From IMG/VR virus record IMGVR_UViG_3300044716_000068: DNA of 64,000 nt, one strand, 5' to 3'. The translations under genes and the position numbers were made by a program. The first letter of the stretch is position 1, and each line of letters starts with the position of its first letter. The notes under the pieces were generated by a model. It was not told where the DNA came from. It did not search any database and worked only from the letters and a program-made list of their open reading frames with translations. Source of the stretch: a virus. Positions 11,869 to 31,623 of the stretch are shown here, one piece after another.

Positions 11869-14800
11869 TTATCTATTTTCTTTCTGTATAGTAACGTCAT
11901 ATTCTTTAGCAAAGTCAGCATCTAAAATAGCTAGGTATGTAACTAGTGATTTTGTGAAAGGGAACATCTTCATAGCGTTCTTTACAGGCTGTGCTTTCTT
12001 CCTTACATCTTCTGCTGTTGTTTCTGATTTCATATCAAGCCCTGTTGTTTCCATCCACACATGATCCATGAATCTACCAAAGTCTTTAATGATACCAGTT
12101 GCTGGGAATATACCTTGATCTAATAAGGATTGATAGTTAACTGGATTATAGAAGAACGAAAGCTCACCTACAAACTTATCTATCACTCTTGTTGTATATC
12201 TGTGGAAGTTCTTAGCTGCTTTGTCTTCGTCATCATCAGGTGCTATGAATCCTAGAGAGAACATCATTCCTATCAACGAACCTAAGATGGCTAATTCCTT
12301 AATCTGATTCTGTAAGTTGTTTCTTACCATATCAATGAACTGCTCCTTGGTCATGTATAATTCTTGACCTGTAGTTCTTTTATACTCCTGTCCATACTGT
12401 TCATACATCTCATTAAGCTTCTTGATACCTTCATCATTCATATTCATGATGTTGAGAAGATTGGTTTGCTTATCTTTAAATGAAGAACCAATTACAGCAG
12501 CTAGTAGACGAATACGTCCAATGTCATATTTCTCACCAATAGGTATTCCATCTTCTCCAATCTCTACAGAGAAGTCATCACTCACTCTTCTGAACTCAGA
12601 GAAACGAGTATCTGTTAATTTTGGAATCCAGTTCTTAAACAACATCATACTCTTGGTCCAGATAGACATAGACATCCTGTTGATGTCACCATCTGATAAG
12701 TTACCTGTTGCGTTTCTAGATATACGTCTAGTCAGTGTAGTGAGTCTTTGTATCTCTTCTCTATTGTTTAGATCCAAGCCAGGGATGACTAACTTACCAT
12801 CTTCTATCTTTCTAGTATTAGCAATAGACCTTGTCTTCTTTAGCTCTTCAATCTCTGCATCTATCTTAGATTTGCTTTCTGCAAACTTAGCAGCACTGTC
12901 ATATCTATCTTTATACTTACTATTTACAAACTCTCTGATACTAACTATTCTACCATTCTCCACCATCATGTTTTCAAGTAGGGTGAGGAATGTAGCTTTC
13001 TCTAATAGTTGTTCTGGTTTTCTCATAAAGACCATCAGAGTATCAGAAAGACTACCTCTAGTTAACTTACTCAAACCAGCTCTCTTAAATTCTTCATAAG
13101 AAAGATCATCTTTCAATGGCATGAATGTATTAACAAGTTCAATAAACGTTTCCTTATCTTCCTCATTAGCAAAGCTTTGTCCTATAAGTTTAGCTTCATT
13201 CTTTGCAAACTCTCTAGCCTTGAAGTAGTTTCCTGCTTGGGTAGCAATCTGAATATTACCACCAAACATGTTGGCAGCACCAGATATAAATTCAAATCCA
13301 AGTGTCTTTAACTGGAATGCTCTGTTAGCAGCATCCATTGTTTTAATCAATGATGTAGGTGTAGGATTTTCTTCAGGTGAGAAGATTTCTTTACCAGCCA
13401 CTTTGTTGATACCATTCTTAATAAAGTTTGTCACCTTATCCATGTTCAATGGTAAGTCTGCATCATCTATAGTGTATTTTTGATCATACAATAAAGATCT
13501 TAAAAACTCATCATATATCTTTGTATTCTCCTCATTACCAGGAAGTTCTTGCACATTACCATCCTTTCTAACTACATCACTGTATCTAGTGGTATTAAGA
13601 TGTCCCTTGAATGATTCAATAGTTCTTACTAAGTTTAACTGACCTTCCACCTCAGATAGATATTTGTATTTCTCTACTTGTTGGATGTATAGGATGAGGT
13701 TTTTAAATAAATCTTCACTCACCTCAGAGTAGTCATTAACTCCTGTATCAGTTTGTGTGAAGTCATATGTATAGTATTTAGGAATACCATTCTGTAATTC
13801 TCCTGTGATTTCATTGATGCTACCATAACCAGTGTCATCAGCTCTAGCTTGAAGACTGTTATAGAAGTTGTTCATAACAGACAACTTATTATCCCATATA
13901 AGCTGTTCAGCCATGCTCTTTCTAATGAATGGTAAGAAGTTCTTAGCCACCATATTGTTGATGTAACCAATATCCTTTGCCTTCTCATTATACTTAGTAA
14001 TGAAATTGTACAACTCAAGTAGGTCAGAGTCTTTTTGAATCTCTAAATATTCATCAGATAACCATTCACTCTTAGGGTGTCTTTTAACAACATAGTTATT
14101 AAAGCCATTAAAGTCTTCTCTATCTATATCCCATAAGCGTTGTGTCTCAAGTATATATTTTTCTCTTTGTTCATTTTGTTCTTCTGCTGAACCAGGATAA
14201 GAACTCTTGTTGATTCTAGCAATCTGGTTTTCTAATAAAGGAGCAGCTTCTTTTTTATAAGCTTCTACATCAATGTTATTTAATAACCATTCTTTATCTC
14301 CACCTTCACTAGCTTTTTTATCTATTTGCTCAAAGAAATCTTTATTATATTTATAGATTAGTTTGTTTACTAATCCACCTTCTGTAGTCTTTTGATAAAG
14401 CTTTTGTATAAGTTTTCTTGTATCACCACCTCTAGCAACAAGCTTATCTCTAAGACTCATTAAGACTTCCACTTCTTTAAATGCATCAGCTGAAGCATTG
14501 TTCTTTGCTGTAGATGTAAGCTTATATAACACTTGTAATGCACGTGAAGGTAGCTCTGATACACCTCTAAACCTAGCAGCCAATCCTTTGATTACTGCTT
14601 CAGCTTTGGTCAATCCTGCTACAAGGTTTCTTTGTCCTATGTGTTTATCAGCAAACTCTTCAGATGCTTTAATAATTTGCTTGATAGAAAGTCTGATAGA
14701 TTTAGATTCTGAATCTAAGTCTTCTAATATCTCCTTTCTAAGGTCTATGTTTTCTTTCTCTGCTTCTGTAGTAGCTCCCTCTTCCATGTCTGTTGTATAG

Positions 14801-16983
14801 ATTAAATAACCTATATCATCACCAATGCTTGAAAACACCTCAGAGAATCTGATGTAATTATTCATGTCATCAGCAAAGTCAGACAACTCTTCATTAGTAG
14901 AGTCTGTATCTCTAGCAGGTCTATCCTTATAGATAGTGTTATAATCATTTAAGATTCTATCACCATCTCTTCTCATCACCTGGATTACATCTACAAGAGG
15001 TTGTAAGTTTCCAGTTCCTTGTACTAAACGAATAGCTCTTCTCAGAGTGTTCATACGTTCAATCTTGAATATACGCTCTCCCTCATCACCTACTTGCTCT
15101 TTAGCATATTCACGCATTAATGCATTCAACTTACCTAATACACCATCAAGTGCTTCACTACCAGTGGTTTCTGATTCCTCAGATAGAGGAATAAGTTTCA
15201 TCTCTGTCAATGGATCTATCTTAGATTTATCTACAGAGCCTATTGCTATGCCATCTAGTTTGAATCCTTTCTTAGCATCCATCTTATCCACTCTTCCAAA
15301 CTCTAAAGAGATGGGAATAGCACGTAACATACCAAATTCTTTGATACCATAGTTTTCACGTAGGATGTTTTTGTATGTACCAATCTGAATATTGAAAGCT
15401 CCTTGCTTAAACCAAGCAACATCATTGCCTGCAATATGCATAAACTTCCAATCCAAGATGTGTGTTTTACCTTCTGGCTCTACAGCTAAGAAGTCAATTG
15501 TTCCAGCCTCTTTGTTTTTCTTATCATATATAACAACCTCAGAGAATATAAGTGTATCCTTTGGGAATGTTTCAATTAATTCTGTATAATAGTTTTCTAG
15601 AGTTTCATACATAGCTCTACTCTCTAGATTATACTTAGTAGGTCTAGGCTCAGGATACTCACGTTTAGTTCCATCCTCATTGTAGTATCTACTATGTATT
15701 TCTTCTAAGTCTCTGTGTCCAGCTACTCCTAGAGTTCTTTTAAGTTCATTGAACTTCTTCTCTTGTTCACTAAACACCTTATTGCCAAACCTTTCTTTAT
15801 ACCAAGCTTTGACCCTATCAGTTACCCTCTTTGTTATCTTTGTCCAAGTGCCATCATCATTCTTAATCTCATAGCCATTGTTAGCTTCTTCAGAATCTAA
15901 TAACAAAGGGTCAGCATTCTTTTCAGCATATTCAACCTTTCTAATATTGTTAGGATCTTGTGTCTTAGCTATGTTTTCCTGTATTACTTTTTGTTGAGGA
16001 CTAATGATTTGATAGTAAGGACCTTGTCCATTAATAATTGGAATACCTTCTATCTTACCACCAAGAATTTCACTAGCTGCTTCTCTAAATATATCTATAC
16101 TAGCTTTACTGTATAGTCCATGAATAAAGTCTTTAATCATGCTCCACCACTTCTGAACTAATGATATGTTATCTTCATTAGCTAACTCAGGGAAGTATTC
16201 ATTACCAGTACCTTCATTTACAATCACTTCAGCAATTAACTTATCTACAGCTTCCTTCTTAATCTTGCGAATGTCAGGCTTGCCATTAGGAAGTTGGTAA
16301 TCTTTATTGTCCTTGTATAATTTGTATGTTTGATTATAGATGGCAAACTTATCTATTCTAGATATCATTTGCGTAACTAGTTGAGGATTAGTCTGTTCTA
16401 TCATAGCTGTAGCTATGTGAACAAGCTCTTCTGTTAATGCTACATCTTCTTGACCCTCAGCAATAGCAATAACACCTCTAGCCAAGTCAGCTACACCATT
16501 AATGTTTGTAGTGTCTAAGCCAGTATTTTTAGCATATGTTGCTAAGTCTTCAATAGATATACCCATCTTAGTAGCAGCTTCCTTAACCTTTTCTATAATA
16601 GCAGGGGTAGCCACTGTGCTTGGGAATCCAGTTACTTGTAAGAAGTTAGTTGGTTCATCATTAGTATAATTATTATCCTCTCCTTCTGTTGTTGGTTTGT
16701 TTTCTTCTACAGCCAACTCACTATTGTAATAATCTAAATACTTCTGAGCAAGCTCATTAGATGGACTAATGAAGTAGGTTGTTCTATCTCCATAGCTTGG
16801 AGTGAGTAACATTTCTCCAAAGGCATCATTAACCTTCTTAGCAGAAAGCTCAGCTAATGTATTATCAGTTATTCTTAATGAATCTCTTTCTCCATGAATA
16901 TAGGTAAATCCACCATTATCCATAGCAAGGTCTCTTGCTGTGTCTGTAATATCAAACTTAATATCTAATATACATTTGCTCAT
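11869..16983 (-). CDS. large hypothetical virion protein (1704 aa), possibly an internal/ejected cargo protein
   Basis: Long uninterrupted ORF with a TAATG-type 1-nt overlap with the upstream 3905-aa gene. No catalytic motif was recognised. Its position among giant proteins at the distal end of the structural block suggests a virion cargo role. Confidence 0.5.
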   Translation of the reverse strand: MSKCILDIKFDITDTARDLAMDNGGFTYIHGERDSLRITDNTLAELSAKKVNDAFGEMLLTPSYGDRTTYFISPSNELAQKYLDYYNSELAVEENKPTTEGEDNNYTNDEPTNFLQVTGFPSTVATPAIIEKVKEAATKMGISIEDLATYAKNTGLDTTNINGVADLARGVIAIAEGQEDVALTEELVHIATAMIEQTNPQLVTQMISRIDKFAIYNQTYKLYKDNKDYQLPNGKPDIRKIKKEAVDKLIAEVIVNEGTGNEYFPELANEDNISLVQKWWSMIKDFIHGLYSKASIDIFREAASEILGGKIEGIPIINGQGPYYQIISPQQKVIQENIAKTQDPNNIRKVEYAEKNADPLLLDSEEANNGYEIKNDDGTWTKITKRVTDRVKAWYKERFGNKVFSEQEKKFNELKRTLGVAGHRDLEEIHSRYYNEDGTKREYPEPRPTKYNLESRAMYETLENYYTELIETFPKDTLIFSEVVIYDKKNKEAGTIDFLAVEPEGKTHILDWKFMHIAGNDVAWFKQGAFNIQIGTYKNILRENYGIKEFGMLRAIPISLEFGRVDKMDAKKGFKLDGIAIGSVDKSKIDPLTEMKLIPLSEESETTGSEALDGVLGKLNALMREYAKEQVGDEGERIFKIERMNTLRRAIRLVQGTGNLQPLVDVIQVMRRDGDRILNDYNTIYKDRPARDTDSTNEELSDFADDMNNYIRFSEVFSSIGDDIGYLIYTTDMEEGATTEAEKENIDLRKEILEDLDSESKSIRLSIKQIIKASEEFADKHIGQRNLVAGLTKAEAVIKGLAARFRGVSELPSRALQVLYKLTSTAKNNASADAFKEVEVLMSLRDKLVARGGDTRKLIQKLYQKTTEGGLVNKLIYKYNKDFFEQIDKKASEGGDKEWLLNNIDVEAYKKEAAPLLENQIARINKSSYPGSAEEQNEQREKYILETQRLWDIDREDFNGFNNYVVKRHPKSEWLSDEYLEIQKDSDLLELYNFITKYNEKAKDIGYINNMVAKNFLPFIRKSMAEQLIWDNKLSVMNNFYNSLQARADDTGYGSINEITGELQNGIPKYYTYDFTQTDTGVNDYSEVSEDLFKNLILYIQQVEKYKYLSEVEGQLNLVRTIESFKGHLNTTRYSDVVRKDGNVQELPGNEENTKIYDEFLRSLLYDQKYTIDDADLPLNMDKVTNFIKNGINKVAGKEIFSPEENPTPTSLIKTMDAANRAFQLKTLGFEFISGAANMFGGNIQIATQAGNYFKAREFAKNEAKLIGQSFANEEDKETFIELVNTFMPLKDDLSYEEFKRAGLSKLTRGSLSDTLMVFMRKPEQLLEKATFLTLLENMMVENGRIVSIREFVNSKYKDRYDSAAKFAESKSKIDAEIEELKKTRSIANTRKIEDGKLVIPGLDLNNREEIQRLTTLTRRISRNATGNLSDGDINRMSMSIWTKSMMLFKNWIPKLTDTRFSEFRRVSDDFSVEIGEDGIPIGEKYDIGRIRLLAAVIGSSFKDKQTNLLNIMNMNDEGIKKLNEMYEQYGQEYKRTTGQELYMTKEQFIDMVRNNLQNQIKELAILGSLIGMMFSLGFIAPDDDEDKAAKNFHRYTTRVIDKFVGELSFFYNPVNYQSLLDQGIFPATGIIKDFGRFMDHVWMETTGLDMKSETTAEDVRKKAQPVKNAMKMFPFTKSLVTYLAILDADFAKEYDVTIQKENR

Positions 16984-19900
16984 TAGCAGTTGTTTACATT
17001 GTTATTTTCTATCTCTGGAAGACCAGGAGCTTTGATTTTCTTAACCTTTTTAGATACAGCCTTAGGAGCATTATCTTTCTTCACCTCAAAATACTTTCTA
17101 ATATCATCATCTTCTTTCTCAATGGTTTGAATAAAGCCATTAGGAATTACAGATTCTCTAGCATTTTCATAGAACTCATTAGCTTTGTAGCTATCTCCCC
17201 ATGCATTGATCATCTTGTAGATGAATGTATCAGCACCATAGAAGTTCTTGATAGCAAATGGTGTATCACCATTATATACCTTCTTGAACAATCCTTTCTT
17301 GATGTAAGAGAAGTCACCATCTTTTCTCATCTTAATCTTCTCTGACTTAGTTCCTTCTTCCCATGTGTACACAATGTAGTCACTCTTAGACTCACGTGCC
17401 ATGTGATGTATCTTTACTAACTGAGGAGTCTTACCTGCTTGGATATCAAGATTTAATGCTTCATTCTTCTTGAACTGTATGCCATTGCTGTAATACCAGT
17501 TACCTTGATTGTCCTGATTGAATGTAGCTTTCTTGTAAGGAACAACATCATCATCAGCCCAGTTGTTTCTTTGGAATACACCTAGTTTATAAAATTGATC
17601 TAAGTTAGGCATTTTATCCAACTTAGACAAAGTTTTGTTATATATTTTTGCAAAGTCTTCGTAAGGAAGTAAGTTAGTAAATGATATAGGACTGTTAGCA
17701 ATACCAGATTGTAATACAGAAAGTCTAACTAACTTATCATATATAGGGTCTTTGCCAAGATAAGACTTAAGTTCTTTGAAGCCATATATCATTTGGTTTT
17801 GATCATATGTCTTATTGTTCTTATTCTTAATCTTAATGTTATTAACTCCATCCTCTGTAGGAGAAGGTAGGTTTTCTAACAGATTAACTATAATGTTGTC
17901 AAACAATTTATGGTTAGGATCTGCTTTAACCTTATTTACAAAGTCTGTAATTTCACCAGCAGCATTGTCATCACCTAATAACATACCACTGATTTCTTGG
18001 TTAAGCTTTTGGTCCACCTGTACAGCCCAATCAAATAGATTAGTTACAGCCTTTCTAGACACATTAACAAATTCATCATCTGACATATCTGTATATGGTA
18101 GAAGCACATTCTCAAGAACACGTCTAGTGTTGTTTTTATCAGAGGTAAGAATCTCAGCATAAGCATTTCTGATGTTGCCAATTCTTTCAGCTAACTTACC
18201 TAAGAAAGAGTTTGCTAATATGTCATCTACAGAAGAGATGATTGTGTTCTGTGCTTTGAGCAACTGTTGTTGTTTCTTAAACACTAAGAATGGATCATTG
18301 AATGTAGCTGTATCAAAGTTAGATCCTTGAGTGACAAGAAACATTTGATTAGCCATCCTAGCATATTTTAAGAACTCATCCAACATAAACTGTTGTTCAG
18401 CTTTCTGATCTTGGTTTAAGTTGTTATTTCCCACTGTACTAGATAACTTAGATGCAGAAGGTATAGTTGTAATCTTACTAAAGTTATAGTTATCAGCCAC
18501 CTTATACTTAGGGCTTTGTTTCATTTCTTTAACAAAGTCTTCAATGAATAACCAAGAGTATCCAGCATTTTCAATCTTACGTAAGTAATCACGTATGATT
18601 GGTTGGTTCATGAAGTAGGAGATATCCTCAATAGGCACACCAAGCTTAGTTAAGAATAACCAAGTGGAAGCTGTATTAGGAGTGGCACCTAGTTCCATGA
18701 TCCATGGACCCTTAGAGATATCCACGTATCCATCAATAAACTGACCAATGATATCTGAAATGTAATCTCCTTTAGCATTCTTAACCATAGACAATGTAGC
18801 AACAGGTTTGTTGTTTATCATTATCTTATTGTAATCCTTAAAGTTAATTTTACCATTACCTATCCATGCTCTGTCAGCACTATCTAACATAGCTAGTTTG
18901 TCTGTGTCAACATATATAGGTTGTCTTTGGTTAAGAGAGTGGTTTGTTTGGTTTACAGCAGCAATACCAATTGCATACTTACCAGATACAAACGCTTGTC
19001 TTAATCTAGACATAAAGTTTCTATCTAACATATTGCCTGGAGTGTCATAGTTAAATGATTCAAATCCAAGCTTTCTTGTAATCTTCTTAGCCAACCCTTT
19101 CATTTGGTCTGCAGAGTTAGGCTTAGTTAATGAAGCAAAGTTTTCTTCTCTTGTAATTAAGTTTTCCATTGACTGGATATACTCATTCTCAAGACTCTTC
19201 TTGTACATTCTATCTACAAACTTTTCCATTAGAACTGCCTGTAAATCAAGGTCATACAAGTCTTCAAGTTTTTTACCTGTCTCTTCCAACTTAGTCATCA
19301 ATGCATCTTCAATCTCAATAACAGATAAACTATCCCCAAACATATTCTGAAGTATAGGAATCCATTTCTCAGCAGTCTTGCTAGAAGCTTCGCCAAGAGC
19401 AATGTCACTTAATAGGTTTTGTAAGTTGCCAAGTTTTGTTTTGCTTTCTTGTGTAATCTTAATCTTGTTTTCAGATATATCAGCATACAAGTCTTCAAAC
19501 TTTTCTTTAGCAGCATCACCAATACCATAGTAAGGAACTAGTTTGATGTTGCCAAGACCATCCTTATAAGTATTCTTTAAGTATATAAATAACTTATCAA
19601 TGTCAAAGTCAGAACCAGCTTTCTTAACTAGGGCAGAAGGAATCACAACACTGTCACCAAACTCTCTAGGAAGGAATTGCTTAATCACAATTGCATCAAT
19701 AGAGTTTTGTTTCTGTGTAGGGATACGATATGCCACACCTTTTAATATCTTCTGTCCTTCTTCTGTATTGTTTAAATAGTCAAGAAGTTCTGCGTCAGTC
19801 TTATTGCTGTCAAACCATCTACCTACCATCACCTCAGCTACACGCTCACCCTCTTTGTTTGTATAAAACTTAAGGACGTCAGATGTATATCCTTTACCAT

Positions 19901-22900
19901 CCTTAGATTTAATTCTATTCTCTTCTAAAAATGTAGAAGGAATCTGTACCTTTTGACCACCAGACATCTTTGGTGTAATCACCTCTCTGTCTGCAATAGA
20001 ATATAGGATGTTTCTGATTTGTTGGTAAGCAGGAGTTGCTTCAATAACAACTTTGCCTTCTAAGAAACCAGCTAACGCATCAGCCACATTATCATTAACT
20101 TCTCTTTTAAGAATCTCTCTACGTAATAAGTTAGCAGATTTGGAGAAGTCTGCAATCTTAAACTTACCATTCTTTAACTCCTTGATTCCCATTTGTTTAA
20201 GAAGGCTTTGATAACCATTATCAATCATTGCTTCTAATAACTCTTGGTTATGCTTAACCTCATTGTATAAGTTTTTACCATCATTATAGGTAGACTTATT
20301 CTTAAGAGCATTCCATTTATCAAGACGCTGATTAAAGTTATCACCTGGCTCAAAGTCAATAGGTACACCAGCTTCCATGTAGTCAAGAGTGACTAACTTA
20401 GTAACCTGACTACCTCTAGTTACAACAGGCTCATCTTTAGATGGAACCTCAGATTGTATAGACATGATACCAAATGGTACATTAACAATACCTACATAAG
20501 GAGCTTCGTTGAATTGATCATTCTCATTGTATGGTTCGTTAAGCTCTTCAGCTCCCACCTTTCTACCAGACTTAAATACTGTGTAATCAATGTTCTCAGC
20601 TTGCATTTTATTGTAAAACTTAATGCTGTTTGATTCAGGATTAAGTTGATGTAACACCCTGAAGCTCAATGGATAAAGAGCAAACTTATCTAATACAATA
20701 TCATTATAAGATCTGCCATTAGCTTTGTTACCAGACACAATAGGTTTAAGAGGAGTGTATGCACTCTTTACACCTGGGTTCTTTTTATTAAACTCAGCAA
20801 TCTCTTCCTTACTTGCACCAGACTTAACAAGCTTCTCATAAGCAATATCAAATCTGTATTGTGATTCCTCATTATCATTCCACTCACCTGCACGTATTCT
20901 AAAGTTGCGATAGGCCTTCATGGTAATAATACCACTACCATCTGTTTCTTCCCAAGCTTCTTCTTGATAGCCAGGAAGATCACCAGTTGCTAAGACATCA
21001 GAATATGTTGCTGTTCTGAAATAGTCTTGTGTGAAGTCTGTGTTTCCTATATCACCTTCATCAAATCCTTCATTCCAAATGTTATTCAACGCAGCGTTCA
21101 TGCTTGCTGAATTAGAAATAATAGATTGACGTGGAGATAGGAAACTCTTGATACGCTTTAACTCATCCTTATATTGATATGGATCTGAGTATAATAATTT
21201 ATGTAACTCAATGTTGTTAATCATGAAATTGATTTGCAACATTTCAAGTTCTCTATTTAAGTTTTCTGTTGTAGTGGTGCCAGATTGAGCAAACGCTAAG
21301 TTTTCAACAAACCAAGTTTCTTTCTCTTCTCCTTTGGTAATGATACCATAGTTGCTAAGACTTCTTTTGAATGCTGCTGTCTTTTCAACAATATACTTAG
21401 TGATGGCTTCATCTATTGCGTTTACATTTGTATTCTCGTCAGTGAATGCTTCGTACACTTCTTGTGGTGTAAGCACTTCACCATCTTCACCCATCACTTG
21501 ATCGTGTAACTCTTCACCAAGGATATCCTTGAAGAAGCGTAACTCATTGGTGTTTCTTGTAAATGGACGAGTCTCTCTAGCTAATTCAATCTCAGAGAAT
21601 AAATATCCTCTGAATGTATCTAGTACACCACCTGGTTGATCATAACCTGCTCTGATTGATTCCTTAGAAATAAAGTTGCCCATGTTTACCATGTGCTCAA
21701 GAGAAGCATCACCAGGTACAAGGTTATAATAGTAACCAGCAAGGTTCATATTAATCTCTTGTACTAAACGTTGTTTATATGTAAGCTTAGAAGATTGTTT
21801 CTTTTTACCATTACCTTGGTCTAATGTACCATCAGCCCAAGAAGCTTCCATTAACTTTTCTGTACCTTTTATACGATTACCTCCTTCAGCAATATTGAAC
21901 ATCTGTCCTAGGATAACTGAGTTCTTAGCAAAGTTATCTGTAAGTAAATATGAATATGGAGTATCACGTAAGTCATTGATATTCTGTGCTTTAGAAAGAA
22001 CATCTGATAATTTACTTAAAGCATTAACACCAATGAATGATTGTGTAGCATCTCCATTTACATTGTAGAATACACTATCAAACTCAGGGTTATCTATCTT
22101 AGCTTTGATATTAGCTAGTTTTAATAATCTACCATTGATAGATAATACACTACCAGAGAAGGTAGCTATCTTATTTAATTCAGTGAAACTTTTCTTAATA
22201 CCCTTTACTGATTCTGAGAAGTCATCTTGATCCTCACCTGACATTTCTAATAGGTCAGCTTTGTTAAATATAATACCAAACTTCTTTAAGAAGTTAAGTT
22301 GCTCATCTAATGTATCTACAGCAAACTTAGAAATAACAGCTTTACCATTAGCATCTACAACAGGCATGTAAGCCTTTTGCAAACTGCTGTAATGGAAGTA
22401 TCCATTTTGTTTCTTTACAGAAACAACAATAGCATTTAAGAAATCTTGATTAAGTTGTCTTGCAGCAGTGGCAAAGTTAGAATCACCCACTTGTACTTCT
22501 CCATTAGGTAATATGTATAAGTTCTTTACAATAGGACTTTGCTTATTGAAAGTTCTCCATAGAGCTGAAACTAATTGAAGGTCATGTCTGTTCTTCAAAT
22601 CAGTAAACTCAAATGTATCCATATTATATGAACTCTTTGATATGCGTTCATATAGAGTGCGATAGTTTTCATCATTCTCAGCTAGTTTGCGAAGACCCTC
22701 AATCATTTCATCAGGGCTATTAGCATTGTGTGTTTGGTTCATGATAGCCATAAACACTTGACTAGTAGGAAGTAAGGTGGCACCATTGATAGATGAATAC
22801 ACAATTTTACCTTCTCTTACAATAGGTATTGTAGATAGTAACATCTTCACAGCAGCGTTTGCTCTCTTGAAGTTATCTATCTGAGTGGCTTCACCATATG

Positions 22901-25900
22901 GATCTTCTTTAGCTTTATCAGTTATGTAAGCTGCTTCATTGTTATTATCAAACTCAATGTTATAAGCAGATAAGTATTCTTTATGTTTTTCAACTAACTC
23001 ATCCCAGTTGTCTGTAATCTTTTGCCATAACGCTCTAGACTTCTCTTTAGTAGGAGCTGCTTGCTCTTCAGTGATTGTACCTTGATCTACTAAATCTTCA
23101 GCAGCCTTCATTGTTTTAAGGGCTGTCTTTTGTAAATCTTCTTTAAGCTCTTGGTATAATTCTACTTTGTTTATGCTTGGAATAGTGAAGAGACTCTTGT
23201 TATTCTTTGTAAACTTACCTAATGTTACATAGGTCATTTGTTGCATGATGTCATGTACAGTTTGACCAGGTAGATCCTTAAGGCGATACTCACTATTAGC
23301 CCCACCATAAGCATCTGAAATATCTATAATGCCATTCTTAGCATATGATAATTTAGAACCTAAAGGAGAATATTCTTTATAGAAACCACCAGTCATTCTC
23401 TTGAATAACTCTTCTGTGTTTCTTGCAGCTTGAGGACCATAGAAGAATGACTTGATAAAGTTAACTAAGTCATTAAACAACTTAACAATAAATGGTTGTC
23501 CTTTACTTGGCTTAGTTGGAACTTTGCCATATTGTACAAAGTCTCTGAATTCCTCAGCTAATTGTTCTTTGATTTGGAAAGCAGTGGCATTAGAATATTT
23601 AATCTCTTGTCCTGTAACTCTATCTACAAAACTACCACTTCTATCTTTGAATTCACTTACAATGTTATCTCTTTCCTCAGGGCTAGAGAACATCTTCCAT
23701 ACAGCTTCAAACACTTCATGATATGCTGTACCAACTTCTGCGTTGGCATATACATACACACCACCATTCTTTAACATACCCCAAGCTTCTAATCCATTAG
23801 TTCCTCTGATTATATTCTTAACTCTGTATAAAGGAATGTTAGGGAAGTTTGCTTTAAAGAAAGCTTCTATCTTAGGCCAGTCTTCTTTTTCAAACTTAGT
23901 GATTTGATCCTTAGTCTTAATACGAAAAGGAGCATCATCACCCATGCTATTCAATTGTCTTCTGATTAACTCTTCTGCATCAGGAGTAGTTGTAACAATC
24001 TGTGCAGCTTGTTTCTCTTCAGCTTTAGTAGTAGGTTGCTTTTCTAAAGCAGCTAGTTCTGCATTATATTTAGCATTAATAGCTTTAACTCCAGCTACTG
24101 TAATGTCTCCTGATTTATATTTATCTAACTCTTCTTTTCTTCTTTTTTCTATATCAGCTTCTTCAGCAGAAACAGGAGCAATAGATTGCGCTGCTTGTTG
24201 AGGAGCAACCTTATTATATATAGATGCTACTAAAAGATCTGTAGCTTTATTCTTGTCAATATTTCTACTCTTAGCTAATGCTTCAATAGCTTTGGTATTA
24301 CCTGGATCATCTTGAACTAAACTAATACCTTTTTTACCACCACTAGTTTCAAGTTCTTTAGCATCAGCTACAAATGTAATCTTTCCTAATTGAGGATTGT
24401 CAATTACATTAGGTGTTTGATTATCAAGGATATATCTAGCTGTAGCTGTCTCAGCTAACTCACCTGTTCTAACAGCACCAGGAGTTAATAGAGTTGGTTT
24501 TTCTTTACCAACCTTTTCAACCACTCCTGCATATCTATCAGCAGTGTCTGTAACTACAAAGTAGATACCTTCTCTGTTTGTATCACCCACACCTTTAGTT
24601 GGTCTGATAGGTACAGTGAGAGGAGTCTCTTGTCCAGTTCTACCTTCTGTAGATAATAAGTATGATTGATAGTTCTTCCAAGTCTTAGATTTGATTTTAC
24701 CATCAGCAGTTACAGATGTAATTTGCTCATATGGTTTATTCCAATTAGACAAATCTTTAGCAACATAAGCAGATCTTATATTACCATACATCTTTTGTAT
24801 TTGCTCAACTATCTTATCTTTATTTGATTCAACACCAATAGGACTAAATGGTACGTTCATACCTTCATTAGAAATGTTTAATTTCAATCCTATTAATCCT
24901 GCTTTGTCAAACCAGATGCTATTAACACCAGCTTGGTTCTTTGGATTACCCCAGTATACAACACTTCTTAACCATTCTAATAGACGAGTGGCTTCAGCAG
25001 AACTAAGGTCACCATCTGTATATTTAATCTCTGATAGTCTGTAGATAGCATCATATATTAATGTAGCTTCTTGTAAACTATGTTGTTTGTTTTGTAAAGC
25101 AACATATCCATTAGCACCAATTAGGAATGGTTTTCCTAATGCTTTGGTATAACGTGTTGATCCTCTTGATATTACACCATCTCCCAATGTTGGAACATAT
25201 ATAACAGGCTTCTCAGCTAAGTCAGATTGTTTAATCAATCCAGCTTCTGTTACACCTGTTCTAGCATTCTCTACAGCTTTACCTTCAGTGTCTACCGCTG
25301 GTTGAGGTATACCAAAAGATGCTTCTATTTTATGAGGTTCAAGTTCTTTATTTTCTAATGTATCTTCTACAAACTTTGTATACTCTTTAGTAATGGCTTT
25401 CATTACATTGTCAGGAGTTCCCTCTCTGAACATGCTCTTTCCACCATACTTTTCACTCCATTGGAGTTTAGGGTCAGGCATTACTTGGAACACAATCTTA
25501 TCAAAGTTGCTTCCTATTATTGGTTGACCATCAACACCTACAAGCTTTACACCATTGCCTGATTGTTCAACCATTACTAATGCAATAGTTTTAGCAGGAT
25601 CTACATCACTAGTTCCCTTGATGTGATTCATTAATCCACCAAGTCCTAATGTTTCTTCATTAGCTAATGTAACATACACACCACGTATCTTCTCCCTGTT
25701 AGGAAAGTTGTATAGATTTGCACCAAATGCAACAGAGTTCTTATAACCAGGAAGTTGCTGTGTAGCAACTGTGGCCCTAGGAACTACAGTGGTATCTTTT
25801 CTATTGTCTGTATCAGTTACATATAATGTTGGAACAGGAGTGTCTGTGGGCACTGAGTCAGTGTCTGATGTAGAAAGGACTTGAGCATTACCTTTCTGAT

Positions 25901-28700
25901 TCTTTATTTCCTTCTCTCTGTTCTTTAAGAAGTCTTCTGATTGCTCATTAAACTCTTTAAGTATATCATTAACTAATTCAGGATCATTCAAAGAGTTTAC
26001 ATAGTCTAATTTGTTTTGTCCTTCTTCAGGCTTAGCAACATCACTATACTTCTTCTTATTTAATACTTTATCAATTGCCTTATCTAATATATATCCTAAC
26101 TCTTCAGCAGTCTCATCTTCGCTAATGTTGAAGTCTCTGAACTGTTGTGGAGTCATAAATGCTACATCACCTGTAGGAAGTTGAACTTCTAGTTCTCCTC
26201 CTAAGGTTTGTGATAATACACTTAGTGTTGGCTTAAATATTAATTTGCCATCTCGTATCAAGACTGGTTCTTTAAGAGAATACACCTTACCAATCTCTAA
26301 CTTCTTCTCAACAATCTTAGCTTTGCCTTTCTTCTTTGCTGCTGCAACCTTCTGTTCAATAGTAACTGGAACTTCTTCCTCTGCACCAAACTCTTCTTCC
26401 ATCTCCTCATATTCCTTGGGATCTTGTTTGATAGCATCATATTCTTGAATGTATTTTCTTCTGTTTAATGAAAGGTCAATAACATCAGCTAACGCAGTTT
26501 TAAGATCTTCTTTAACATCAGATATAACATCCATGCTATTGATTTGATCTAATACATCCTGTGTAGCTTGTTTGTTAGGCTCATTACCTGCAATAATACT
26601 TTGTAGTATTTGACCAGTGTTAATACCTGCCTCATTTAAAATAGAATTCACTTGTGGAATACGCACATCATAGTTACCCACTTTGGCTGTAGCGTATACA
26701 AGTTTATCTATCACCTTATCATTATACAACTTGTTACCTTCCTTATCAACAAGGTTAGAATATCTTTCTCTAACCATAGAATAGGTATCTTCTACCTGCT
26801 TAGCTAGAGCTGTTAAGTTGTCAAGTCTTTGAACAAATTGTTCTCTTGTTTCATTAGCATTAACCACCCCATCAGCTACTAATTCCTCAAAGCCTACATT
26901 ATCCATAGCTTGAGATTTGTAATAGGATAGTTCTTGATCAACAGCATCTATCTTACCATACTTAACTCTAGGCATTAGATATGATAGAGTGAAGTCATGC
27001 TCCATATCTTTCTCAGTGACTTTATCATTAGCTACGATAGCAGCTTGTCTTGCTTTCTGAGAACCAATACCAATACCAATATAGTTAGCTAGATCTTTTA
27101 GAACAGCTGTAGAGTTTGTTTTATTTAATGCTTCTATTGCTATGTCTGTATTTCTACCTCTCTCACCACCATATCCAAAGAATCCTCTTTCACCTAATTC
27201 ACCAGACTTACCAAATCCAAATTTAGTTTTACCTTGCTCATCTTGATAAGTACCTGCGTATCCAGCTTGTTGTAAACCACCAGACAATGCACCTATAAGT
27301 ATGTTTGACATACCCTCTTTAGTGTACAATGCTTGATCTATACCATAGCTAGTTATGTTTCCCATAACATCATTCATGTTATTTAGAAAACTAGAAACAT
27401 CTTTTTTGTTTCTGTATGCTCTATTGAAATAATCATTAACACCAGTTTGAATAGCAAATTGTGAACCCTCTTCAAATCCTTCTGAAGGAGATACAATAAG
27501 ACCACCAACATTTCTAATACCACTACCTATTTTACCAAGTCTTGTCTTTGGTAAGTATTTAGCCCACTCCCCACCAACTACTGATTGCTCAATGTCATTG
27601 ATAATTGCAGCGTCTGCTTTCTTAGAAGAACCCAAGATCTTTGGAAGTTGAATATAGTTTGTTGCTGTAAGTAACAATGAGTTCATTCCCCATGTGAAGT
27701 TACCCACTTTGTCTGTGTACTCATTAATAGAATCTAAGTCTTTGCCTGTAGGAGTTTCACCATACTTATCTCTATATGCTTGGATGGCATTCTCTCTAAA
27801 GGAGTTCATGTTCTGAAGACCTTCTAATCCTGCTTCACCAAATGTACCTGTAGCAGATGTAATGATTCTATCTGAGTTTCTTAATATAGAAGCCATTGGT
27901 GACTTCAAATACTTCTGTGCTACAGAGTTAAGTGCACCATCAAAAGCAGCAAACTTTTGTAGTCTAGGAACTGCAGACATAGATTCTTCTACAGCTGTCA
28001 TTGCTTCTAGACCTTGACCTGCTTTAACTAACTTACTTGTTATACCTAATGCTTTAATGGCTTTACTCCATGCAAAACCACCTCCTATTGTACCTAATGA
28101 ATATCCTAAGTTTTTAAGGATACCATCAGAAAAGAAGTTAGCTGTTAATAAATAATCAGGGGAATACCAGTTAGCATCAGTTTGCTTCTGGGTCATATAG
28201 TTAGGAAGTGCATCTTCTAATGCCTTGTATGAATCATCTAACTTCCTATTAATTTCATTATCAAATAATGAAGCAAATCTACCATCACGTACCATAGCAC
28301 CTAAGCCATAAACAGTACCAGCTGTACCAGAGATAAAACTATTGGTAGCTGTACCTACAAATTTTAAAGCACCATTCTTCCATTGATCTAATGCACTTTG
28401 TTGTTGTGCATATTTTTCTTCTAGATCAGTTTCATATGGTCTACTGCTTTTATATCTATTGCCAATATATATTGAAGAAGTGGGAAGTTGAGGGACATGA
28501 CTTTTCTCTGGAGTAATATTATTCCATATATCTTCAGCAGACATATTACCGCCTGCAACCCCTGTCTTGCTATCAATTGAAGGAACATCAAAACTTATGT
28601 CTTGAAACTTTGCCTGACCACCTAAGTTAACAACTTTTGGTTCAGAGGTAGGTTGTGTAGCATCACCTGTCCCTAAATTAATTACTTTTTCTTCTGGCAT
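16983..28700 (-). CDS. giant virion protein (3905 aa) with RNA polymerase beta-prime-like double-psi beta-barrel catalytic segment (crAss-like vRNAP candidate)
   Basis: Residues ~2992-3035 are YRIPTQKQNSIDAIVIKQFLPREFGDSVVIPSALVKKAGSDFDIDKLFIY. This parallels the RNAP beta-prime segment [40 protein letters not shown] (R.P[ST]....SI.A...[IL]......V......[AS]DFDxD) with similar spacing. About 340 aa upstream, FKSGRKVGAE weakly resembles the beta-subunit GRHGNKG barrel motif. The DxDxD codons lie at plus-strand nt 19596-19610. Confidence 0.55.
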   Translation of the reverse strand: MPEEKVINLGTGDATQPTSEPKVVNLGGQAKFQDISFDVPSIDSKTGVAGGNMSAEDIWNNITPEKSHVPQLPTSSIYIGNRYKSSRPYETDLEEKYAQQQSALDQWKNGALKFVGTATNSFISGTAGTVYGLGAMVRDGRFASLFDNEINRKLDDSYKALEDALPNYMTQKQTDANWYSPDYLLTANFFSDGILKNLGYSLGTIGGGFAWSKAIKALGITSKLVKAGQGLEAMTAVEESMSAVPRLQKFAAFDGALNSVAQKYLKSPMASILRNSDRIITSATGTFGEAGLEGLQNMNSFRENAIQAYRDKYGETPTGKDLDSINEYTDKVGNFTWGMNSLLLTATNYIQLPKILGSSKKADAAIINDIEQSVVGGEWAKYLPKTRLGKIGSGIRNVGGLIVSPSEGFEEGSQFAIQTGVNDYFNRAYRNKKDVSSFLNNMNDVMGNITSYGIDQALYTKEGMSNILIGALSGGLQQAGYAGTYQDEQGKTKFGFGKSGELGERGFFGYGGERGRNTDIAIEALNKTNSTAVLKDLANYIGIGIGSQKARQAAIVANDKVTEKDMEHDFTLSYLMPRVKYGKIDAVDQELSYYKSQAMDNVGFEELVADGVVNANETREQFVQRLDNLTALAKQVEDTYSMVRERYSNLVDKEGNKLYNDKVIDKLVYATAKVGNYDVRIPQVNSILNEAGINTGQILQSIIAGNEPNKQATQDVLDQINSMDVISDVKEDLKTALADVIDLSLNRRKYIQEYDAIKQDPKEYEEMEEEFGAEEEVPVTIEQKVAAAKKKGKAKIVEKKLEIGKVYSLKEPVLIRDGKLIFKPTLSVLSQTLGGELEVQLPTGDVAFMTPQQFRDFNISEDETAEELGYILDKAIDKVLNKKKYSDVAKPEEGQNKLDYVNSLNDPELVNDILKEFNEQSEDFLKNREKEIKNQKGNAQVLSTSDTDSVPTDTPVPTLYVTDTDNRKDTTVVPRATVATQQLPGYKNSVAFGANLYNFPNREKIRGVYVTLANEETLGLGGLMNHIKGTSDVDPAKTIALVMVEQSGNGVKLVGVDGQPIIGSNFDKIVFQVMPDPKLQWSEKYGGKSMFREGTPDNVMKAITKEYTKFVEDTLENKELEPHKIEASFGIPQPAVDTEGKAVENARTGVTEAGLIKQSDLAEKPVIYVPTLGDGVISRGSTRYTKALGKPFLIGANGYVALQNKQHSLQEATLIYDAIYRLSEIKYTDGDLSSAEATRLLEWLRSVVYWGNPKNQAGVNSIWFDKAGLIGLKLNISNEGMNVPFSPIGVESNKDKIVEQIQKMYGNIRSAYVAKDLSNWNKPYEQITSVTADGKIKSKTWKNYQSYLLSTEGRTGQETPLTVPIRPTKGVGDTNREGIYFVVTDTADRYAGVVEKVGKEKPTLLTPGAVRTGELAETATARYILDNQTPNVIDNPQLGKITFVADAKELETSGGKKGISLVQDDPGNTKAIEALAKSRNIDKNKATDLLVASIYNKVAPQQAAQSIAPVSAEEADIEKRRKEELDKYKSGDITVAGVKAINAKYNAELAALEKQPTTKAEEKQAAQIVTTTPDAEELIRRQLNSMGDDAPFRIKTKDQITKFEKEDWPKIEAFFKANFPNIPLYRVKNIIRGTNGLEAWGMLKNGGVYVYANAEVGTAYHEVFEAVWKMFSSPEERDNIVSEFKDRSGSFVDRVTGQEIKYSNATAFQIKEQLAEEFRDFVQYGKVPTKPSKGQPFIVKLFNDLVNFIKSFFYGPQAARNTEELFKRMTGGFYKEYSPLGSKLSYAKNGIIDISDAYGGANSEYRLKDLPGQTVHDIMQQMTYVTLGKFTKNNKSLFTIPSINKVELYQELKEDLQKTALKTMKAAEDLVDQGTITEEQAAPTKEKSRALWQKITDNWDELVEKHKEYLSAYNIEFDNNNEAAYITDKAKEDPYGEATQIDNFKRANAAVKMLLSTIPIVREGKIVYSSINGATLLPTSQVFMAIMNQTHNANSPDEMIEGLRKLAENDENYRTLYERISKSSYNMDTFEFTDLKNRHDLQLVSALWRTFNKQSPIVKNLYILPNGEVQVGDSNFATAARQLNQDFLNAIVVSVKKQNGYFHYSSLQKAYMPVVDANGKAVISKFAVDTLDEQLNFLKKFGIIFNKADLLEMSGEDQDDFSESVKGIKKSFTELNKIATFSGSVLSINGRLLKLANIKAKIDNPEFDSVFYNVNGDATQSFIGVNALSKLSDVLSKAQNINDLRDTPYSYLLTDNFAKNSVILGQMFNIAEGGNRIKGTEKLMEASWADGTLDQGNGKKKQSSKLTYKQRLVQEINMNLAGYYYNLVPGDASLEHMVNMGNFISKESIRAGYDQPGGVLDTFRGYLFSEIELARETRPFTRNTNELRFFKDILGEELHDQVMGEDGEVLTPQEVYEAFTDENTNVNAIDEAITKYIVEKTAAFKRSLSNYGIITKGEEKETWFVENLAFAQSGTTTTENLNRELEMLQINFMINNIELHKLLYSDPYQYKDELKRIKSFLSPRQSIISNSASMNAALNNIWNEGFDEGDIGNTDFTQDYFRTATYSDVLATGDLPGYQEEAWEETDGSGIITMKAYRNFRIRAGEWNDNEESQYRFDIAYEKLVKSGASKEEIAEFNKKNPGVKSAYTPLKPIVSGNKANGRSYNDIVLDKFALYPLSFRVLHQLNPESNSIKFYNKMQAENIDYTVFKSGRKVGAEELNEPYNENDQFNEAPYVGIVNVPFGIMSIQSEVPSKDEPVVTRGSQVTKLVTLDYMEAGVPIDFEPGDNFNQRLDKWNALKNKSTYNDGKNLYNEVKHNQELLEAMIDNGYQSLLKQMGIKELKNGKFKIADFSKSANLLRREILKREVNDNVADALAGFLEGKVVIEATPAYQQIRNILYSIADREVITPKMSGGQKVQIPSTFLEENRIKSKDGKGYTSDVLKFYTNKEGERVAEVMVGRWFDSNKTDAELLDYLNNTEEGQKILKGVAYRIPTQKQNSIDAIVIKQFLPREFGDSVVIPSALVKKAGSDFDIDKLFIYLKNTYKDGLGNIKLVPYYGIGDAAKEKFEDLYADISENKIKITQESKTKLGNLQNLLSDIALGEASSKTAEKWIPILQNMFGDSLSVIEIEDALMTKLEETGKKLEDLYDLDLQAVLMEKFVDRMYKKSLENEYIQSMENLITREENFASLTKPNSADQMKGLAKKITRKLGFESFNYDTPGNMLDRNFMSRLRQAFVSGKYAIGIAAVNQTNHSLNQRQPIYVDTDKLAMLDSADRAWIGNGKINFKDYNKIMINNKPVATLSMVKNAKGDYISDIIGQFIDGYVDISKGPWIMELGATPNTASTWLFLTKLGVPIEDISYFMNQPIIRDYLRKIENAGYSWLFIEDFVKEMKQSPKYKVADNYNFSKITTIPSASKLSSTVGNNNLNQDQKAEQQFMLDEFLKYARMANQMFLVTQGSNFDTATFNDPFLVFKKQQQLLKAQNTIISSVDDILANSFLGKLAERIGNIRNAYAEILTSDKNNTRRVLENVLLPYTDMSDDEFVNVSRKAVTNLFDWAVQVDQKLNQEISGMLLGDDNAAGEITDFVNKVKADPNHKLFDNIIVNLLENLPSPTEDGVNNIKIKNKNNKTYDQNQMIYGFKELKSYLGKDPIYDKLVRLSVLQSGIANSPISFTNLLPYEDFAKIYNKTLSKLDKMPNLDQFYKLGVFQRNNWADDDVVPYKKATFNQDNQGNWYYSNGIQFKKNEALNLDIQAGKTPQLVKIHHMARESKSDYIVYTWEEGTKSEKIKMRKDGDFSYIKKGLFKKVYNGDTPFAIKNFYGADTFIYKMINAWGDSYKANEFYENARESVIPNGFIQTIEKEDDDIRKYFEVKKDNAPKAVSKKVKKIKAPGLPEIENNNVNNC

Positions 28701-31547: not shown

Positions 31548-31623
31548 AATACAAAATTAATTTAAAATATTAGAATTACCAAGAGCTATAACAAATTTTA
31601 GTAATTCACTATAACTGAATTAG

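Follow-up and report, generated by a model that had tools for sequence, protein, structure and literature searches.

The 64,000-nucleotide (nt) virus record IMGVR_UViG_3300044716_000068, the stretch analyzed here (below, the window), carries on its minus strand a giant gene whose single open reading frame (ORF) runs unbroken for 3905 amino acids (aa). We read its product as a single-chain, two-barrel DNA-dependent RNA polymerase (RNAP) of the crAss-like virion RNAP family, of the type of gp66 from Cellulophaga phage phi14:2, fused at its N terminus to a homolog of phi14:2 gp67. Given the homology, motif register, fold and genomic context laid out below, we put the probability of this reading at about 0.88. 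Packaging, injection, activity and timing are carried over from phi14:2 and from phage crAss001: gp66 is packaged in the virion, is resistant to rifampicin and transcribes the early phage genes, and alanine at any of the three aspartates of its DFDID motif abolishes RNA synthesis (bioRxiv 10.1101/2020.03.07.982082). The crAss-like virion RNAP and its fusions are already known, and what is new here is a pattern of terminal cysteines in the cargo proteins of these phages.

The two-barrel polymerase core

The original prediction had flagged positions 19590-20600 for a segment resembling the catalytic part of the RNAP beta-prime subunit, with a DFDID motif, inside the 3905-aa protein. The motifs YRIPTQKQNS, DFDID and GRKVG all fall within this interval (Table 1), and DFDID is the sole DxDxD in the entire giant. 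Upon pairwise BLASTP comparison, giant aa 2490-3371 aligned with gp66 residues 865-1656 (E 4e-25) and the motifs came into register, with 'AYRIPTQKQNS...AGSDFDIDK' lying over 'GYRIPNQGQSS...TGSDFDIDK' of gp66 and 'SGRKVGA' over 'DGVKVGA', which bears the flagged segment out. The GRKVG motif proposed upstream of it is likewise present and aligned to gp66, at a distance from DFDID of 319 aa rather than the ~340 aa that had been estimated. The spacing from the motif arginine to the first aspartate is 39 residues in the giant, and the corresponding spacing in the Escherichia coli beta-prime subunit is 35 residues.

With the full-length 3905-aa protein we obtained zero matches in Pfam, in PHROGs and, by phmmer, in the PDB; homology emerged only with the core segment alone or with tblastn. 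A translated search with aa ~2400-3567 returned 139 phage records, the named ones being nearly all crAss-like or uncultured gut phages, and these included phi14:2 g066, annotated as 'Catalytic RNA polymerase subunit' (E 3e-20). When the core segment was compared to the PDB by phmmer, 6vr4_A was the sole significant match (5e-16). A profile of 31 sequences, aligned to gp66 by hhalign, placed aa 2306-3373 on gp66 residues 633-1658 with 100% probability (E 7e-40, 923 columns), whereby D3031, D3033 and D3035 of the giant aligned with D1361, D1363 and D1365 of gp66. Across the 31 homologs, which are 22-64% identical to the window's core segment, K2714-V-G2716, R2992, P2994, T2995, S3000, G3029 and D3031-F-D-I-D-K3036 are invariant. 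The proposed kinship with gp66 thus held at the level of both profiles and pairs, and, with the BLASTP, phmmer and hhalign alignments taken together, the motif match is far beyond chance. By megablast, we found no near-identical DNA in the phage collection.

The predicted fold points the same way. Structural similarity to two-barrel RNAPs, on which the original prediction had made itself depend, was found with an AlphaFold2 model of aa 2450-3400 (predicted local distance difference test, pLDDT, 77.3; predicted template modeling score, pTM, 0.78): Foldseek ranked 6VR4, the structure of phi14:2 gp66, first (E 1.3e-25, query-normalized TM-score 0.57, 959 columns). QDE-1 and plant RDR2 took the next ranks (E 3e-5 to 9e-4), phiKZ non-virion RNAP (nvRNAP) chains were among the weak matches, and bacterial beta-prime chains matched weakly (E of at least 0.14, TM-score below 0.1). 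Beyond the catalytic motif, we found no cellular beta-prime signal, as there was no Pfam RNA_pol_Rpb1 or RpoC match and the Foldseek matches were insignificant; the relation to cellular beta-prime is one at the superfamily level only, not family membership.

Carrying the gp66 domain limits of the phi14:2 paper onto the giant via profile hhalign, we located equivalents of the Connector, the bridge helix and the trigger loop (Table 1), with GRKVG sitting just upstream of the Connector-aligned region. Within the clade, conservation extends to aa ~1808-2270 and 3374-3905, segments that showed no similarity to gp66 or to PDB entries. Residues 1-595 of gp66, which include its Cleft-blocking domain (196-233), found no alignment in the giant, and a model of aa 1560-2300 gave no match to 6VR4; the self-inhibiting Cleft-blocking domain may be too diverged or absent in the giant.

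By analogy with its characterized relatives, the giant would be made late and packed into the capsid as cargo, would be threaded N-to-C through the tail, partly unfolded, ahead of or with the DNA, and would refold in the host to transcribe early phage genes without the host RNAP. D3031, D3033 and D3035 on the beta-prime-like barrel would then hold the catalytic Mg2+ opposite the beta-like barrel that bears K2714, and an HExxE domain described below might, speculatively, act in processing. Several points weigh against this reading. The DFDID loop itself was modeled at pLDDT below 50. The terminase TerL of the phage has its nearest relatives outside Crassvirales, namely in Leptolyngbya phage Lbo-JY46 (39%) and Cellulophaga phi4:1 (32%), as compared to 26-29% for crAss-like phages. 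Lbo-JY46 has a protein without DFDxD at the position equivalent to that of the giant, and hence the polymerase is not universal among the nearest relatives. Furthermore, the phage is known here from sequence alone, with packaging and activity assigned by analogy.

The Lbo-JY46 protein, as well as the ~2800 of 3905 aa that have no polymerase similarity, could also suggest a dead polymerase, i.e., an RNAP fold retained in a purely structural role or in ejection, as a channel or plug. We consider this very improbable, since the residues of known importance in gp66 are all unchanged among homologs of only 22-64% identity, and the same residues are kept in 538 tblastn-confirmed IMG/VR stretches that were found via DFDIDK and RIPTQ patterns. 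Such invariance indicates purifying selection on catalysis.

The gp67-like fusion and its junction zone

The size of the giant, almost twice that of gp66, had been taken as a sign of probable additional uncharacterized domains. The extra length is real, and most of it is a fused homolog of gp67, the virion protein encoded directly upstream of gp66 in phi14:2: upon aligning a profile of the N-terminal 1500 aa to gp67 with hhalign, we obtained a match of aa 72-605 on residues 52-558 (98.5%, E 2.6e-15). Stand-alone homologs of this module are common, at 1.5-2.4k aa. In one IMG/VR locus (L028), a separate 2015-aa protein corresponds to aa 78-1625 of the window giant and a separate 2149-aa polymerase to aa 1808-3876 (45% identity). 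Because these unfused proteins align on either side of it, the fusion point is placed between aa ~1625 and ~1808, and, judged by its alignments, the giant is a gp67-like protein joined there to an RNAP. Fusions among gp65, gp66 and gp67 in some phages were already noted (Drobysheva et al., bioRxiv 10.1101/2020.03.07.982082), and a review mentions RNAP genes of up to ~6000 aa. Genuine unfused examples are L028, phi14:2, crAss001 and Lbo-JY46. Other candidates were rejected: in locus L003, a giant seemingly split into three genes (1710 + 828 + 1605 aa) has its ORF breaks on two 100-N scaffold gaps, and the fragmented, frame-shifting gene calls of L004 and L005 look like assembly errors. As a separate observation, a short helix motif at aa 1535-1553 of the giant (VAGVKAINAKYNAELAALE; window 24042-24098) is a close match to gp67 residues 1333-1351 (AADTKIINAKYDAKLAALK), being identical at 12 of 19 positions; it falls outside the region of detectable gp67 homology.

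Fused giants turned out to be widespread. An exhaustive HMMER search with the core retrieved 2160 cluster representatives at E <= 0.001, and of the 150 best matches, 120 measured 3.5-5.2k aa and carried the core at a matching relative position. IMG/VR yielded 60 non-redundant loci whose giants measure 3500 aa or more, up to 5107 aa. The core of the metagenomic giants is 35-87% identical to the window's, and in these giants as well as in gp32 of Flavobacterium phage FpV4, DxDxD lies at ~73-78% of the length. One protein database had suggested that the homologs are short (<= ~1650 aa), a notion that we discarded as the representative library and IMG/VR show giants of 3.5-5.2k aa. Giants in this size range dominate the clade, and a length of 3905 aa is unexceptional; the window giant adds one more case to a known architecture and would not surprise a specialist.

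Two side observations concern relatives of the polymerase. Some of them (P0002, P0029, P0043 and P0061; locus L003, 10001-14818) contain a NADAR domain (PF08719, DUF1768) that is probably appended near the C terminus; a Pfam search of the window giant gave no NADAR match. In the uncultured phage cr108_1 (L008, 6462-18052), the RNAP frame is broken inside the catalytic motif, as one coding sequence ends in '...AKAGSD' and the next starts with 'LYDIDK...' ~290 nt further on, in line with earlier descriptions of some crAss-like groups whose RNAP genes are interrupted within DxDxD.

A motif of its own, GTxYHExF[E/H], marks the junction zone. Whether the pattern was applied strictly or in relaxed form, it was found in 120 of 120 giant representatives; among the strict matches, 79 end in E and 35 in H. 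The window giant reads HEVFE at aa 1661-1665, within EVGTAYHEVFEAVW. In L028, whose genes are unfused, the gp65-like protein instead carries a comparable GTKYHEFFE. The motif looks like a metal site. We obtained no support for reading the HEVFE region (aa ~1640-1760) as a zincin-like metallopeptidase: no peptidase family matched in Pfam at E <= 10, a model of aa 1560-2300 (pLDDT 67) gave no Foldseek match against the PDB at E < 0.8 and no significant protease, and hhalign of the junction region against the zincin region of gp65 was negative.

These results bear on whether the giant is a polyprotein that is cut near aa ~1625-1808 after assembly or ejection, releasing a gp67-like protein and a ~2100-aa polymerase, with the junction HExx[E/H] domain perhaps being the cutter and the fused form only a precursor. 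The phi14:2 paper proposes cleavage of such polyproteins (bioRxiv 10.1101/2020.03.07.982082), L028, phi14:2 and crAss001 encode the gp67-like protein and the RNAP separately, and the junction motif is found in every one of the 120 giants, in the canonical HExxH form in 35. However, most giants, including the window's, have HExxE rather than HExxH, the Foldseek, Pfam and hhalign-to-gp65 comparisons revealed no protease, and no cleavage site is evident. We hence regard a cleaved polyprotein as unlikely and keep to the fused, single-chain polymerase.

Cysteines at the ends of cargo proteins

The giant and the 1704-aa protein encoded directly after it each have one cysteine, situated where the two proteins meet in gene order, i.e., at the very end of the former and at residue 4 of the latter (MSKC; Table 1). 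We found the same arrangement in cultured phages. In phi14:2, the sole cysteine of gp67 is its last residue, gp66 has cysteines only at positions 3 and 2179 of 2180, and the sole cysteine of gp65 is at position 3. In crAss001, gp47 has its sole cysteine at 2339 of 2341, gp50 has cysteines at 5, 1334 and 2404 of 2412, and gp49 has its sole cysteine at 5, with gp47 encoded on the strand opposite to gp50 and gp49. In Lbo-JY46, a 1552-aa gp67-like protein ends on its sole cysteine, and the 2748-aa protein that follows (MSNC) has its sole cysteine at position 4. FpV4, where the gp67-like protein is fused into gp32, has the sole cysteine of gp32 at 4286 of 4287, and gp33 starts with MAC. In the unfused locus L028, the gp67-like protein has its sole cysteine at 2013 of 2015, the RNAP has cysteines only at 4 and 2147 of 2149, and the protein in the gp65 position has its sole cysteine at 4.

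The pattern persisted across the larger sets. The last cysteine lies within 5 residues of the end in 116 of the 120 giant representatives, which, except for five, contain 1-3 cysteines each (cysteine frequency 0.044%). In the IMG/VR giants, a cysteine occurs in the last 7 residues in 60 of 60 and in the first 10 residues in none of the 60, and the fusion zone at aa 1000-2300 contains 4 cysteines in total across all of them. Downstream ORFs of related loci have a cysteine at position 3-5 in 55 of 55 cases (the sole cysteine in 47), and 19 of 21 stand-alone gp67-like proteins have one in the last 7 residues. Of 100 other ORFs in the same loci, taken as a control, 11 have a cysteine within their first 5 residues and 6 within their last 7. 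In IMG/VR, the upstream cargo protein thus has a cysteine 0-6 residues away from its C-terminal residue, the next begins with M-x(1-3)-C, and both junction cysteines are missing where two cargo genes are fused.

Codons of the junction cysteines are both TGT and TGC, and offsets and spacers vary, indicating a constraint on the protein and not on the RNA; with these features, and with crAss001 gp47 lying on the opposite strand, we rejected an RNA-level cause. The C-terminal flanks of the terminal cysteine fall into several unrelated-looking families, and hence the cysteine itself is what is conserved. Only one further cysteine recurs among the giants, at aa 2955 (GKRVCEIMVGRWF; window 19836-19838), 76 aa ahead of DFDID. 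Most giants with a non-C-terminal cysteine have it, and in these it could act as redox partner to the C-terminal one; the window giant has an alanine there.

As a tentative explanation, to which we give somewhat less than even odds, the gp67-like, RNAP and gp65-like cargo proteins would be joined end to end in the virion by a bond, in the simplest case a disulfide, from the C-terminal cysteine of each to the cysteine at position 3-5 of its successor. The continuous chain so formed would pass through the tail in fixed order and at 1:1:1 stoichiometry and be released by reduction in the host cytoplasm, with gene fusion as the genetic equivalent of one link. Such thiol links would explain why precisely the fused genes lack the junction cysteines. 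For the window, a thiol link between C3905 and C4 of the 1704-aa protein is a speculative extension of this idea from sequence. Virions of crAss001 hold many structural disulfides (PMC10172136). We found no description of the terminal-cysteine pattern in the searched literature, in which the key papers make no mention of cargo cysteines and the phi14:2 paper was covered in its bioRxiv version. The organization and ejection of crassvirus cargo is an open question according to a 2026 paper on phage N4; the cysteine pattern bears on it and is directly testable in cultured phi14:2, crAss001 and FpV4. If true, a thiol-linked chain would account for both the order and the stoichiometry of a megadalton cargo ejection.

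Genomic setting and known systems

Reading along the minus strand of the window, we found TerL, portal, major capsid protein, tail proteins, a crAss_MUZ muzzle homolog and Cys-poor ORFs, followed by the giant (Table 1), a layout that agrees with the predicted position at the cargo end of a structural operon. The muzzle homolog marks the tail tip upstream of the cargo block. Between it and the giant lie ORFs of 289, 810, 925 and 946 aa, the 289-aa ORF matching a 'virion structural protein' PHROG alone. With respect to the two genes that flank gp66 in phi14:2, the gp67 homolog is fused in cis and the 1704-aa ORF fills the gp65 position; its similarity to gp65 is weak and confined to the C-terminal transmembrane region (E 0.014), and the HExxH of gp65 is missing. 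Other than the RNAP core, tblastn of the neighboring ORFs against the phi14:2 locus gave nothing. The gene order mirrors that of crAss001, where the muzzle gp44 is followed by the cargo proteins gp45 and gp46 and then by the RNAP-associated gp47, gp50 and gp49, all of them detected in virions by mass spectrometry (PMC10172136). Its crass-like elements being the muzzle protein and the virion RNAP (vRNAP), the phage is, from its gene content, crAss-like in the broad sense.

This setting also speaks to an nvRNAP for middle or late genes, like that of phiKZ, which would be made after infection and left unpackaged. Chains of the phiKZ nvRNAP are among the weak Foldseek matches of the core, and packaging is assigned here by analogy. 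Yet the gene is part of the late structural operon, flanked by the muzzle and cargo genes on one side and the tail fiber gene on the other, the homologs gp66 and crAss001 gp50 occur in virions, and the giant includes a module homologous to gp67, itself a virion protein. Moreover, its cysteine depletion, shared with the ORFs in cargo position, suits extracellular storage and unfolded threading. We thus assign to an unpackaged polymerase only the slightest likelihood, a shade below that of the dead polymerase, and favor the virion RNAP.

A number of side observations concern the neighboring genes. The 810-aa ORF has, in its N-terminal MNNNIKCTCGHSWSK, cysteines at 7, 9, 26 and 29 that are zinc-ribbon-like, and a hydrophobic Gly/Ala-rich stretch at aa 250-268; N-terminal-Cys proteins also follow the muzzle gene elsewhere, as FpV4 gp30 and a 674-aa Lbo-JY46 protein both start with MKKKC. 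In the 1704-aa ORF, 'EAGTIDFLAVEPEGKTHILDWKF...Q...Y' at aa ~365-565 (window ~15300-15900) recalls the PD-(D/E)xK nuclease motif, with the comparison to Pfam PDDEXK_1 staying below threshold (E 0.092, 13 bits vs. a cut-off of 22). The tail fiber gene differs from the rest of the window by a more pronounced GC skew, which falls to -0.30 at 2-8 kb, and by a GC content that is raised to 0.42-0.45 at 8-12 kb, and at 8670-10783 it is overlapped by long other-frame ORFs on both strands, typical of Gly-X-Y repeat coding. Lbo-JY46, an unclassified member of the Caudoviricetes, is a cultured phage and the one with the nearest TerL; its 2748-aa protein XAI97381 follows the stand-alone gp67-like protein (L007, 22355-30601), and its comparison to the polymerase gave no BLAST similarity and no DFDxD.

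Table 1. Positions of the described features in the window, with (-) denoting the minus strand
Feature	Window position	Strand	Remarks
TerL	58725-60764	(-)	
Portal	56143-58725	(-)	
Major capsid protein	52628-54181	(-)	Followed by tail proteins
Muzzle protein homolog, 1626 aa	37735..42615	(-)	Pfam PF25731 crAss_MUZ, E 2.2e-27; phrog_37948, E 7.5e-99
810-aa ORF	34422-36854	(-)	N terminus MNNNIKCTCGHSWSK
946-aa and 925-aa ORFs, cargo position	28707..34401	(-)	Zero cysteine, zero family match
Giant gene, 3905 aa	16983..28700	(-)	Single ORF; gp67-like cargo and predicted two-barrel virion RNAP, fused
gp67-like module, aa ~78-1625	23826..28469	(-)	hhalign to phi14:2 gp67; alignment to stand-alone L028 protein
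EVGTAYHEVFEAVW motif, aa 1655-1668	23697..23738	(-)	HExxE at aa 1661-1665; fusion-junction zone aa ~1625-1808
RNAP core, aa 2306-3373	18582..21785	(-)	gp66 residues 633-1658; hhalign, BLASTP, phmmer, AlphaFold2 with Foldseek
GRKVG, aa 2712-2716	20553..20567	(-)	First, beta-like double-psi beta-barrel motif; aligned to gp66 GVKVGA at 1063
Connector equivalent between barrels, aa 2744-2917	19950..20471	(-)	gp66 1095-1238; 143 aligned residues (hhalign)
YRIPTQKQNS, aa 2991-3000	19701..19730	(-)	Strand of second, beta-prime-like barrel; aligned to gp66
DFDID, aa 3031-3035	19596..19610	(-)	Predicted Mg2+-binding catalytic triad; gp66 1361-DFDID-1365 residue for residue
Bridge-helix equivalent, aa 3226-3268	18897..19025	(-)	gp66 1529-1559 (hhalign); long helix at aa ~3227-3257 in model
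Trigger-loop equivalent, aa 3313-3351	18648..18764	(-)	gp66 1598-1636 (hhalign)
C-terminal ~530 aa, aa 3374-3905	16986..18581	(-)	Clade-conserved; similarity to gp66 C terminus undetectable
C3905 codon, last residue	16986..16988	(-)	Sole cysteine in 3905 aa
C4 codon of 1704-aa ORF (MSKC)	16972-16974	(-)	Sole cysteine of 1704-aa protein
1704-aa ORF, gp65 position	11869..16983	(-)	Start overlaps stop of giant (TAATG); transmembrane helix predicted at aa 1564-1582
Collagen-like tail fiber, 3242 aa	1993-11721	(-)	phrog_5073, phrog_1806

Several known systems invite comparison with the giant. Phage N4 (Schitoviridae) packs into its capsid, and ejects, a ~3500-aa vRNAP, gp50, whose catalytic core belongs to the T7-like single-subunit polymerases rather than to the two-barrel enzymes; we found no similarity of N4 gp50 to the giant in PDB phmmer or Foldseek searches. 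The C-terminal domain of the N4 vRNAP has a conserved HExxH motif that parallels the HExx[E/H] of the giants (2026 N4 paper). QDE-1, plant RDR2 and cellular beta/beta-prime have the two-barrel catalytic architecture in common with the giant, and its RxPT...DFDxD motif and spacing resemble those of beta-prime, with identities of ~10% and low TM-scores. Downstream of its muzzle gene, crAss001 has the three large cargo proteins gp47, gp50 and gp49 (Bayfield et al. 2023, PMC10172136), of which gp50 carries DFDVD; they are likened to the window proteins by gene order and cysteine positions, and the terminal-Cys pattern is that of the window, whereas the crAss001 proteins are separate, unlike the giant.

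The best structural match of the core is phi14:2 gp66 (PDB 6VR4), which has two double-psi beta-barrels in one chain, a Connector, a DFDID in exact register, aligning bridge helix and trigger loop regions, and a cysteine near the C terminus. The two are 22-23% identical, and the Cleft-blocking domain and the N- and C-terminal regions of gp66 are not detectably conserved in the giant. Moreover, gp66 is a stand-alone protein of 2180 aa with an N-terminal Cys3, whereas the fused giant lacks such a cysteine and adds a ~1600-aa gp67-like module and the junction domain at its N terminus. The fused architecture itself is shared with FpV4 gp32 (Fipvunavirus; 4287 aa, annotated 'virion structural protein'), which has DYDID at 3116 of 4287 in place of DFDID, is 23% identical over aa 2584-3065, has its sole cysteine beside the C terminus, and is followed by a ~1600-aa protein starting with MAC. 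To our knowledge, FpV4 gp32 has no biochemical characterization. The same fused architecture recurs in more than 100 metagenomic giants of 3.5-5.2k aa. Overall, an experimentally defined family, that of the crAss-like virion RNAP, now reaches a phage whose terminase is nearest to non-Crassvirales phages, and the fused gp67-like and RNAP form of ~4000 aa is the common state in a large environmental clade, which is of help to annotation given that Pfam and PHROGs both left the window giant blank.

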